Shown here one piece after another: positions 7,736 to 10,570 of a stretch of DNA of 64,000 bases. The notes beneath the pieces were generated by a model. It had not been told where the DNA came from and did no database searches. It saw only the letters and a program-made list of their open reading frames with translations. The stretch's first letter is position 1, and each line of letters starts with the position of its first letter. Source of the stretch: Octopus sinensis (lineage: Eukaryota). The position numbers and the translations under genes were made by a program. The stretch covers positions 143,716,001-143,780,000 of the forward strand of contig NC_042998.1 of NCBI RefSeq assembly GCF_006345805.1, read 5' to 3'.

Positions 7736-7749
7736 TCTTTTATTCTTTA

Positions 7750-7967
7750 TTTGTTCAGTCATTTGACTGCGGCCATGCTGGAGCACTACCTTTAGTCGGG
7801 CAAATCGGCCTCAAGGACTTATTCATTGTAAGCCTAGTACTTATTCTATCGGTCCCATTTGCCGCTAAGTTACGGGGACGTAAACACACCGGCATCGGTT
7901 GTCAAGCGATGTCGGGGGTACAAACATACACACAAACACACATACATACATGTATATATGTGTATAC

Positions 7968-8000
<33 letters not shown>

Positions 8001-8180
8001 ATATTATATATATATATATATACGACGAACTTCTTTCAGTTTCCGTCTATCAAATCCTCTCACAAGGCTTTGGTCGGCCCGAGGCTATAGTAGAAGACAC
8101 ATGTCCAAGGTGCAACGCAGTGGGACTGAACCCGGAACTATGTGATTGGTAAGCAAGCTACTTTACCACACAGCCACTCC
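7750..8180 (-). mobile_element. tRNA-derived SINE family A (internal microsatellite)
   Basis: Minus head GGAGTGGCTGTGTGGT (A box)...GGTTCAGTCCC (B box), central (TA)/(TG) tract, conserved 3' part ...CAGCATGGCCGCAGTCAAATGACTGAA; many copies in window. Confidence 0.9.
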
Positions 8181-8209
8181 TATATATGTAAATATATATG
8201 TATAAATAT

Positions 8210-8940
8210 ATATGTAAATATAAGAGAGTGACCACTATGTGGTCTACTCTAGCAATAAAAATAGATCCGCTGGTTTCAGCCACGAAGAATTGTCTCCGAT
8301 GAAAGTTAGCACAACTATTAGCGTAAACGAACAGGGCAAATAAAGAATAACAAAAATGCAGATTAATTCAGGACAACTGTTTCGCTATTAATAAATTATG
8401 TAATTTTACTCACATAACATATCTGTGACTCCTCGGCTGAATTTGTCTAGAATACAATTTACTCAATCGCATGCCAGATTTTACCATAACGATAAACACA
8501 CATGCGGTTCAGTCGATTGCATTCGCCGTTATAATTCAAGTGCCCCCGCCAAAGCCCGCCAAAATTCACGGAAACAGATACTACATCAAAAATTAGATGC
8601 AGTATAATTACAATCAACTAATAAAGGTGAGAAAATTGGATACTAATTGAATAGTACCATCAATTCAACACCAAGTGGCTTAGTGCATAAAAACCAGGAA
8701 TACAATAAATTTTATATGTAAATATAAGAGAGTGACCACTATGTGGTCTACTCTAGCACTAAAAATAGATCCGCTGGTTTCAGCCACGAAGAATTGTCTC
8801 CGATGAAAGTTAGCACAACTATTAGCGTAAACGAACAGGGCAAATAAAGAATAACAAAAATGCAGATTAATTCAGGACAAGATATGTTATGTGAGTAAAA
8901 TTACATAATTTATTAATAGCGAAACAATTGTCCTGAATTG
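8210..8940. mobile_element. Hammerhead-containing retrozyme/pLTR-like insertion, monomer ~504 nt, with short inverted plus-strand segment
   Basis: TAAGAGAGTGACCACTATG at 8221 and 8725 (~165-nt near-perfect direct repeat); 8881-8939 is the reverse complement of 8365-8423. Confidence 0.8.
8365..8443 (-). ncRNA. Type I hammerhead ribozyme with extended stem II
   Basis: rc: AATTCAG-CCGAGGA-(46 nt, hairpins)-GAAA-CAGTTG-TC-CTGAATT; 7-bp stem I; the inverted partial copy has perfect palindrome CAATTG. Confidence 0.75.
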
Positions 8941-8959
8941 ACCTTTCTAACCTCTTCTA

Positions 8960-10570
8960 GGCCACCGTTTAGCCAATCTTCCGGTCGGAAAAAATGTCGA
9001 GCGGCATATCTTCTGGCTGTTTTTATTCTGAGTTCCAATAATGCCTAGACCAATTTTGACTTTAATCCTTTCAAGGTCGATGAAATAAGTACCAGCTGAG
9101 CACCTGGGTTTCCAGAGATTACTTATTCAAACCCCAAATAATCCTTCACAACACATGGCTAATCAAACAACTGACAAGCAATTCTGTAGCCCATCTTTTA
9201 CACCAACACAAAACAGGCGCATGATAACTCTTTCAATAGGTTAAGGTCAGAAACCAATGGAGCCACTGCCTAGTACTGCATCAAAGCACTTATTATAACT
9301 ATTATCTTTATAAAGCCGGCGATCTGGCAGAATCGTTAGCACGCCGGGCGAAATACTTAGCTACATTTCATCCGTCTTTACGTTCAAATTTCCACCGAGG
9401 TTGATTTGCCTTTTGTACTTTCGGGGTTGATAAAATAAGTACCAGTTGAGTACTGGAGTCGATTTAATCGACTTAGTCCTTTTCTCAAAACTGCTGTCCT
9501 TGCACAAAAATTTAAAGCCGTTGTTATTATTATTATTAGTAGTAATAGTAGTAGTAGTTAAGGCGGTGAGCTGGCAGAAACGTTAGCACGCCGGGCGAAA
9601 TGCGTAGCCGTAAAATTCCGCCGAGGTCGACTTTACCTTTCATCCTTTCGGGGTCGATTAAATAAGTACCAGTTACGCACTTGGGTCGATGTAATCGACT
9701 TAATCCGTGTGTTTGTCCTTGTTTGTCCCCTCTGTGTTTAGCTCCTTGTGGGTAGTAAAGAAATAGGTATTTCGTCTGTCTTTACGTTCTGAGTTCAAAT
9801 TCTGCCGAGGTCGACTTTGCCTTTCATCCTTTCGGGGTCGCTAAATTAAGCACCAATTACGTACTAGGGTCGATGTAATTGACTTGATCCCTTTGTCTGT
9901 CCTTGTTTGTCCCCTCTATGTTTAGTCCCTTGTAGGCAATAAAGAAATAAGAAACGTTAGCACATCGGGCGAAATGCGTAGCCGTATTTCGTTTGTCGTT
10001 AGTTCTGAGTTCAAATTCCGCCGAGGTCGACTTTGCCTTTCATCCTTTCGGGGTCGATAAATTAAGTACCAGTTACACACTGGGGTCGATGTAATCGACT
10101 TAATCCTTTTGTCTGTACTTGTTTGTTCCCTCTATGTTTAGCCTCATGTGGGTAATAAAGAAATAAGAATCGTTAGCAAGCCTGGCGAAATGCTTAGCGG
10201 TATAGTTCAAATTCCACCGAGCTCGACTTTGCCTTTCATCCTTTCGGTGTCGACTAAATAAGTACCAGTTACGCACTGGGGTCGATGTAATCGACTCACC
10301 CCTTCCCTCCAAATTTCAAGCCTTGTGCCTATGGTAAAAAGGTCATTATTATCATTATTAGTTAAAAGGCGACGAGCTGGTAGAAACGTTAGCACGCCGG
10401 ACGAAATGCTTAGGCACATTTCGTCCGTCTTTATGTATCTGAGTTCAAATTACGCCGGGGTCGACTTTACCTTTCATCCTTTCGTGATCGATCAAAAAAG
10501 TACAAGTTGAACACTGAGGTCGATTACATCGACAGGCCCCTTTCCCAAAAATTTCAGGCCATGTGCCTAT
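8960..10570 (+). mobile_element. Cluster/tandem array of SINE family B (~7 copies)
   Basis: Repeated AAGGCGGCGAGCTGGCAGAAACGTTAGCACGCCGGGCGAAAT...GAGTTCAAATTCCGCCGAGGTCGACTTTGCCTTTCATCCTTTCGGGGTCGA...AAGTACCAG. Confidence 0.9.

Follow-up and report, generated by a model that had tools for sequence, protein, structure and literature searches.

Positions 8181-8939 of the window, by which we mean the whole 64,000-nt stretch of Octopus sinensis DNA analysed here, probably hold one decayed insertion of a dispersed, non-coding 499-nt hammerhead repeat of the animal non-LTR retrozyme kind. The reverse transcriptase/endonuclease of a Penelope-like element (PLE) was the likely agent of the insertion, with RNA as its template and TA-rich DNA as its target. 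An earlier note made from the letters alone had proposed a retrozyme, and this identification was borne out, the element being non-coding, hammerhead-bearing and dispersed, with a ribozyme core that is conserved in other copies. The window copy is by itself of little weight: its breakpoint beside the GUC triplet looks like no footprint of self-cleavage, and its ribozyme is damaged. The family as a whole would constitute a clean genomic record of a PLE-type enzyme copying a protein-free hammerhead RNA in a mollusc, a record in which two fixed start sites, extension of both target strands, (TA)n targets and read-through of the ribozyme can be recognized.

Comparison of the window with itself gave a direct repeat (8204-8376 against 8708-8880) with a spacing of 504 nt and 98% identity. 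We number positions within 8204-8707 as q, and the RNA sense corresponds to the minus strand of the window. The unit proper measures 499 nt, and a variable 5-nt joint between copies brings the spacing to the 504 nt that had been given as the monomer length. The second minus-strand copy, described before as almost identical over about 165 nt, overlaps 8209-8376 exactly over its 168 nt, the single mismatch lying at 8759. It terminates at 8880 (...AATTCAGGACAA), so that at its 5' end it extends 5 nt beyond the equivalent of the cut site (8876|8875), in the upstream direction on the RNA. The inverted segment that had been noticed beyond this point was found as well: 60 nt with 1 mismatch to their source, carrying the 3' two-thirds of the hammerhead, namely part of stem II, GAAAC, AAUU, GUC (8930-8932) and CUGAAUU (8933-8939), and forming with 8869-8880 a 12-nt inverted repeat at the junction. 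Read 5' to 3' on the minus strand, the element consists of a unit running from q173 down to q6 followed by a full unit (about 1.34 units), and the minus-strand complement of the inverted arm stands directly upstream of its 5' end. The coordinates of these parts are collected in the table.

Features of the hammerhead repeat insertion, in positions of the 64,000-nt window
Feature	Positions	Strand	Description or evidence
3' junction of element	8181..8222	-	terminal 12-nt motif (TATATGTAAATA on + strand), 3.3 repeats in TA-rich DNA; TRF period 12
Full unit (q6-504)	8209..8707	-	499 nt, non-coding, GC 35.7%
Type I hammerhead motif (putative)	8366..8442	-	Rfam RF00163 sub-gathering match, family alignment, folds
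5'-truncated second unit in tandem (q6-173)	8713..8880	-	1 mismatch/168 nt vs full unit
Short inverted arm (q221 to q162)	8880..8939	+ (sense)	reverse complement of 8365-8424

The unit contains no open reading frame above 41 aa when ATG starts are counted. Its 504-nt period is invisible to TRF, which was run with an upper period of 500. The two units of the window differ at 1 of 168 nt, yet the copy is merely 95% identical to its nearest relatives, which fits an origin of both units from one template. The repetition of the terminal 12-nt motif at the 3' junction was absent from the other copies inspected; it could stem from slippage when reverse transcription began, or from expansion of the microsatellite afterwards. 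The inverted arm has no canonical 3' end and adjoins single-copy, non-(TA)n DNA, the right flank 8936-9030 occurring once in the genome. We also considered that a later transposon insertion had split the inverted arm; this was rejected because no family sequence beyond the parts listed was found anywhere within the 64-kb window and because the right flank is single-copy.

The ribozyme was examined both in the window copy and across the family. The Rfam model Hammerhead_1 matched the window motif with 32.7 bits against a gathering score of 34 (E-value 1.6e-5 in a search of 3.5 kb, 3e-4 in one of the whole window), and no Rfam family reached its gathering score within the window. Written as RNA in the sense orientation, the motif is AAUUCAG-CCGAGGA-(46 nt)-GAAAC-AAUU-GUC^CUGAAUU, with AAUUCAG/CUGAAUU as stem I, 46 nt separating GA from GAAA, and a cut predicted between 8372 and 8371 (q169|168). 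The CCGAGGA core reported earlier is indeed there. Compared with the consensus core (C3 U4 G5 A6 N7 G8 A9, G12 A13 A14, A15.1-U16.1, H17), it has C at position U4, and every other core position is present.

Conservation of the core in other copies, suggested beforehand as a check, was assessed by aligning 48 distinct hammerhead regions of the family: C3, G5, A6, G8, A9, A13 and A14 were invariant. The core reads CUGA(A/G/U)GA in 37 of the 48 copies and CCGA in the other 11, which comprise six copies closely related to that of the window and every one of the five members of the most divergent subfamily, the latter also having GUU at the cut. Other copies thus share the C at U4 with the window copy. 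In that older subfamily (L067, L073, L079, L082 and L089, approximately 70% identical to the window unit) the CCGAUGA core and the GUU cut triplet are found in five copies out of five, so that C at position 4 may be a variant that was propagated and not a product of decay. When the hammerhead structure was imposed on the 48-row alignment, 96.1% of 1,020 cells could pair, as against 27-45% when the 3' partners were slid by 1-3 columns. Changes on both sides were observed at three pairs of stem I (AU/GC, UA/CG and AU/UA) and two pairs of stem II (CG/UA and AU/GC), the independent covariation events being few since the rows fall into few subfamilies. Judged from the alignment, the hammerhead is real at the level of the family, with stems I and II covarying and the core kept, and we infer that it is maintained by selection on source copies.

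Folding of family members gave a stem II made of one long, imperfect, unbranched hairpin, with a GCUA...UAGC base and a 6-bp UUAUGU/ACAUAA helix on top. Stem II had been described as branched and 46 nt long; the length holds, and the branching does not, as the family folds show a single hairpin. The window copy folds differently from its relatives, the base of its stem II being broken by GUCA where 41 of 48 copies have GCUA. Changes in the hammerhead core usually reduce activity. Given its C at U4 and the broken base of its stem II, the window copy would probably cut poorly, if at all. Helix III comprises 2 bp closed by a palindromic AAUU loop. A 2-bp helix III with a palindromic loop is the form of animal type I and PLE hammerheads, which the available parts of two reports describe as thought to act as dimers (PMC4209133, PMC7229834). 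Among 20 other family loci, no Rfam hammerhead was obtained at the gathering score. Under permissive filters L014 alone matched, its three units scoring 35.9, 33.1 and 33.1 bits; the long stem II insert costs Rfam score, and Rfam is insensitive to this long-stem variant.

A search of the octopus's own genome (2.72 Gb) gave at least 1,856 candidate places for the unit. Forty of these were scored and proved to be full-length matches with 87-95% identity, located on many contigs. A 20-mer taken from q17-36 occurred 195 times in the genome, and the same pattern read backwards did not occur at all. The middle of the unit (q249-353) gave 151 candidates only, a low number that is expected from heavy 5' truncation. 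Two samples were then used for mapping ends: the 30 best full-length places (L001-L030), a set biased to long copies, and 60 of 64 further places among the first 100 matches of the 20-mer pattern (L031-L090), drawn regardless of copy length. After removal of the duplicates L008, L015, L023 and L042, and of HSPs below 80% identity, 86 loci provided 129 arms, the window being excluded.

The 3' ends of these arms were found to be fixed and the 5' ends variable. The 3' end fell at q15 or below, i.e. at the unit end, in 56 of 129 arms (q3-type), at q380-420 in 67 (q400-type) and elsewhere in 6. The two fixed ends lie 105 nt apart: an arm of the q400-type continues past the unit end for the initial 105 nt of a following unit. 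The 5' ends ranged from q39 to q504. Most family copies are shorter than one unit, with a median arm length of 171 nt in the pattern sample, where none of 86 arms exceeded 610 nt. Long arms such as the direct arm of the window (672 nt, q3-type) or that of L014 (2.8 units) are rare; arms can exceed one unit, which points to a template RNA that is multimeric or circular.

Most arms do not stand alone. A head-to-head partner, in opposite orientation and within 40 nt of the 5' end, was detected for 92 of 129 arms, and the HSPs overlapped by 1-6 nt at the joins. In 43 of 47 pairs, the window's included, one arm had a q3-type and the other a q400-type end; no pair had two like ends, and the window's pair belongs to the four irregular ones. 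Of 166 outer ends, 125 lay in (TA)≥5; of 516 background windows taken from these loci, 50 did. Median identity was 0.96-0.97 within insertions and 0.93-0.94 to other loci, a difference that is merely suggestive of a single template as the copies are old.

One locus stands apart in its layout. L014 (G000:C4:115828892-115832382, at approximately 1501-2902) is an array of 2.8 units whose three hammerheads all lie on the same strand; the first and second units match at 100% over 499 nt. Apart from L004, where the second hammerhead was gained when the whole insertion was duplicated, no other of the 86 loci has more than one full ribozyme per strand. L014 is a candidate source of unit-length RNA.

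The architecture of the family matches, as far as sequence can tell, the published footprint of PLEs in its truncation, tandems, head-to-head arms, two 3' ends and (TA)n targets. In the available parts of Craig et al. 2021 (PMC8557442), PLE insertions are characterized by high 5' truncation, partial tandems and an inverted 5'-truncated copy beside the 5' end, by a short "tail" often present at one end only, and by a preference of some clades for (TA)n as target. Purified Anolis PLE protein cuts and extends both DNA strands, and reverse transcription starts at two internal sites on the RNA, the interval between them being the tail; in vitro, the start site was alike on both strands (Frangieh et al. 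2024, PMC11167929, in the parts available).

We looked for the PLEs of this genome by their GIY-YIG domain (PF01541). At least 5,029 candidates were obtained, 147 of the 150 scored exceeded the cut-off, and open frames reached 883 aa. (TA)≥8 was found downstream of 27 of 30 GIY-YIG loci and upstream of 13 of 30. Of 26 PLE 3' ends inspected, 8-9 stop at ...TTTTTTACAA and 6 continue for approximately 40 nt. The GIY-YIG loci L091-L120 end in (AT)n in two forms, either ...TTTTTTACAA or, about 40 nt further, ...CTTATTATAA, corresponding to ends without and with a tail. The word CTTATTA is common to the PLE tail end and the retrozyme tail end (...CCCTTATTAGTTGAT). When three subfamily units were compared by BLAST with 30 GIY-YIG loci and 1.5 kb of flank each, only TA-rich matches of up to 24 nt were returned (E ≥ 0.038), and no autonomous partner appeared among these 30 of at least 5,029 candidates, a coverage at which a partner may be missed. 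In 20 GIY-YIG loci no hammerhead reached the Rfam gathering score, the sole Rfam match being a tRNA, and a crude hammerhead regular expression gave a few matches on the GIY-YIG loci. One GIY-YIG match (G000:C1:45651720-45651986) lies approximately 1.3 kb from the retrozyme copy L034, which may be chance at such a density of PLEs.

These features can be accommodated in a model in which a PLE enzyme would copy the RNA of the non-coding element at a break in TA-rich DNA. In the family, one strand would prime at the unit end and the other strand 105 nt downstream; both cDNAs would stop at variable points and be joined head to head through overlaps of 1-6 nt. In the window copy, the cDNA would have begun at the UAUAUA-rich unit end, primed by the TA-rich target DNA, and synthesis would have proceeded over 1.34 units of a multimeric or circular RNA until a short strand switch, of the twin-priming or snap-back type, ended it and the product was joined to the target. 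The endpoint 5 nt past the ribozyme cut site would be incidental. The 60-nt arm, lacking a canonical start and adjoining single-copy DNA, suggests either such a short strand switch at the 5' junction or deletion of the rest of the arm, and the window copy could be atypical through a later deletion or other rearrangement.

The position of the breakpoint had been read otherwise in the earlier note, as the trace of a self-cleaved RNA on which reverse transcriptase ran to the 5'-OH end, or stalled at the folded ribozyme, and then switched template, leaving a breakpoint at the GUC. We consider this very unlikely. The repeat does end at 8880 (q173), 5 nt from the cut, L016, which belongs to another subfamily, has a 5' end at locus position 2173 that falls on the identical nucleotide and is joined there to unrelated DNA, and another five arms stop no more than 5 nt from the site. 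Nearness to the cut is nonetheless not above chance among the 129 arms: 5 of the 44 arms ending in q100-240 have their 5' end in q164-173 against 3.1 expected (binomial P=0.20), and wider intervals gave 6 against 6.2 (q159-178) and 11 against 9.4 (q154-183). No peak was seen at the base of stem II (q176-181), and the sole peak among the 129 arms, 14 arms at the unit boundary (q495-504), is partly an artefact of removing weak HSPs. Furthermore, the direct copy of the window includes UUGUC, five templated nt upstream of the cut on the RNA, which excludes run-off at a cleaved end; the inverted arm spans GUC^CUGAAUU intact, which means that its template had not been cut at this place; and many arms pass straight through the ribozyme, up to 2.8 units. 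Mapping the breakpoints relative to the GUC, a check named in advance, thus went against the reading: the scatter that had been given as its refutation was observed, the 5' ends of the 129 arms being spread from q39 to q504 with no excess at the site. The data allow the q173 endpoint shared by the window copy and L016 to be chance, and in the sequence the repeat end beside the cut site looks like a coincidence and not a footprint of self-cleavage. What survives of the proposal is the switch itself, an inverted piece of this kind being typical of strand or template switching by reverse transcriptase at a 5' junction; its link to a cleaved or arrested ribozyme does not survive. In the available parts of the Anolis study, unprocessed RNA was the dominant substrate in vitro and hammerhead cleavage was unneeded (PMC11167929).

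The 60-nt inverted piece might instead have been made after insertion, by a DNA event unrelated to retrotransposition, such as template switching during replication at the palindrome of stem I, or inversion combined with deletion. An arm without canonical 3' end, a unique right flank without (TA)n, the 12-nt inverted repeat at the junction and the rarity of non-canonical pairs (4 of 47) would all suit such an origin. We regard it as unlikely, since arms joined head to head at their 5' junction predominate in the family (92 of 129 arms), since L019 and L047 have similarly short inverted fragments, and since the arm differs from the full unit at 1 of 60 nt, as expected for a single event. That the whole is a local satellite or minisatellite grown by unequal crossing-over and not a mobile element, as its tandem arrangement and 504-nt period might suggest, is extremely improbable: the window holds only 1.34 units, and the copies, which are spread over many contigs, have (TA)n flanks and a 3' end that is fixed while the 5' end varies. 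Returning to copying of RNA by a PLE enzyme as the preferred reading, the rule of one tailed arm per pair (43 of 47, with no like ends) tentatively points further, to both arms arising in one event from one multimeric or circular RNA, each protomer of a dimeric PLE-type enzyme using a different start site; on this rather speculative extension a few insertions (the window copy and L016, both ending at q173) could mark collision or arrest at a folded ribozyme. If true, the dimeric-enzyme reading would represent a strand asymmetry unseen in the published in vitro system.

That almost every pair has a single tailed arm goes beyond the PLE descriptions consulted here. As described in the available parts of PMC8557442 and PMC11167929, PLE insertions resemble the present family in being truncated at the 5' end and partly in tandem, in having an inverted 5'-truncated copy at the 5' end and a tail at only one end, in targeting (TA)n or AT-rich DNA and in carrying a hammerhead in the repeated part; the family differs from them in having no ORF and a tail of 105 nt, as against 30-40 nt in PLEs. 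The Anolis enzyme used the same start sites on both strands in vitro (PMC11167929, as available), whereas the family shows one site per arm in 43 of 47 pairs.

Animal non-LTR retrozymes, to judge from the available parts of Cervera and de la Pena 2020 (PMC7229834) and of Li, Clavereau and Pollet 2026 (10.64898/2026.07.22.740005), resemble the family in their short, low-GC, non-coding unit, type I hammerhead, 2-bp helix III with a palindromic tetraloop, tandem or partial-tandem copies and proposed dependence on PLEs. According to the same sources they form long arrays of units of approximately 300-350 nt in the described cases, whereas the present family consists mostly of dispersed, 5'-truncated single insertions of a 499-nt unit. 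Its stem II, a 46-nt hairpin, is unusually long compared with theirs, and circRNA is a feature of the known retrozymes whereas the family is known from DNA. The proposal that retrozymes are non-autonomous PLE derivatives rests, in the available part of 10.64898/2026.07.22.740005, on co-occurrence in vertebrates and on pLTR similarity, not on insertion architecture. Unlike the cases put forward there, the octopus family had no sequence link to a PLE pLTR among the 30 GIY-YIG loci compared. The present data would extend the retrozyme-PLE link, so far based mainly on these vertebrate observations, to the architecture of insertions, and the family unit offers a small template for a reconstituted reaction. 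Among the 12 of 79 papers listed that join two of hammerhead ribozyme, octopus and Penelope, no title or abstract opening mentions a cephalopod retrozyme.

Two other systems invite comparison. Inversions at the 5' end of LINE-1 reportedly arise by twin priming (Ostertag and Kazazian are credited with this in 2001). LINE-1 twin priming is alike in that the direct copy is joined at its 5' end, through a short overlap (12 nt in the window), to an inverted segment whose source lies immediately upstream on the RNA, and unlike in that it involves another enzyme class and that the second arm of the present family normally starts at a fixed internal site of the RNA, in (TA)n. Plant LTR retrozymes are likewise non-autonomous and hammerhead-bearing, with circRNA as proposed intermediate; as described in the available parts of PMC4918200, they carry type III hammerheads in true LTRs, have a PBS and a PPT and are mobilised by Ty3/Gypsy elements, none of which applies to the window family.

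Contigs of four runs, whose RNA nature is presumed and not recorded, contained short pieces of the unit with 85-99% likeness, some spanning the uncut site; no ends or back-joins at the cut site were detected in the contigs of these four presumed-RNA runs, which speak neither for nor against expression or circles. Among sequencing runs recorded as RNA, none was listed as containing the stretch. An 85-nt piece, window 8461-8546, was present in the presumed-RNA contigs at a depth in the thousands, in a different context and with 85-90% likeness. This piece is probably common to a related, more abundant element or transcript. A search of the animal's own genome for another source of 8461-8546 returned family copies only.

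The surroundings of the insertion are themselves rich in repeats. Its 3' junction adjoins an unrelated tRNA-like SINE, whose 5' end lies at 8180, and tRNA-like SINE copies at 7740-7930, 8000-8180 and 9027-10500 flank the element, each beside a (TA)n or (CA)n microsatellite. To the right of the element lies an array of SINE-like fragments spaced approximately 200 nt apart, with seven copies of a 63-nt core.
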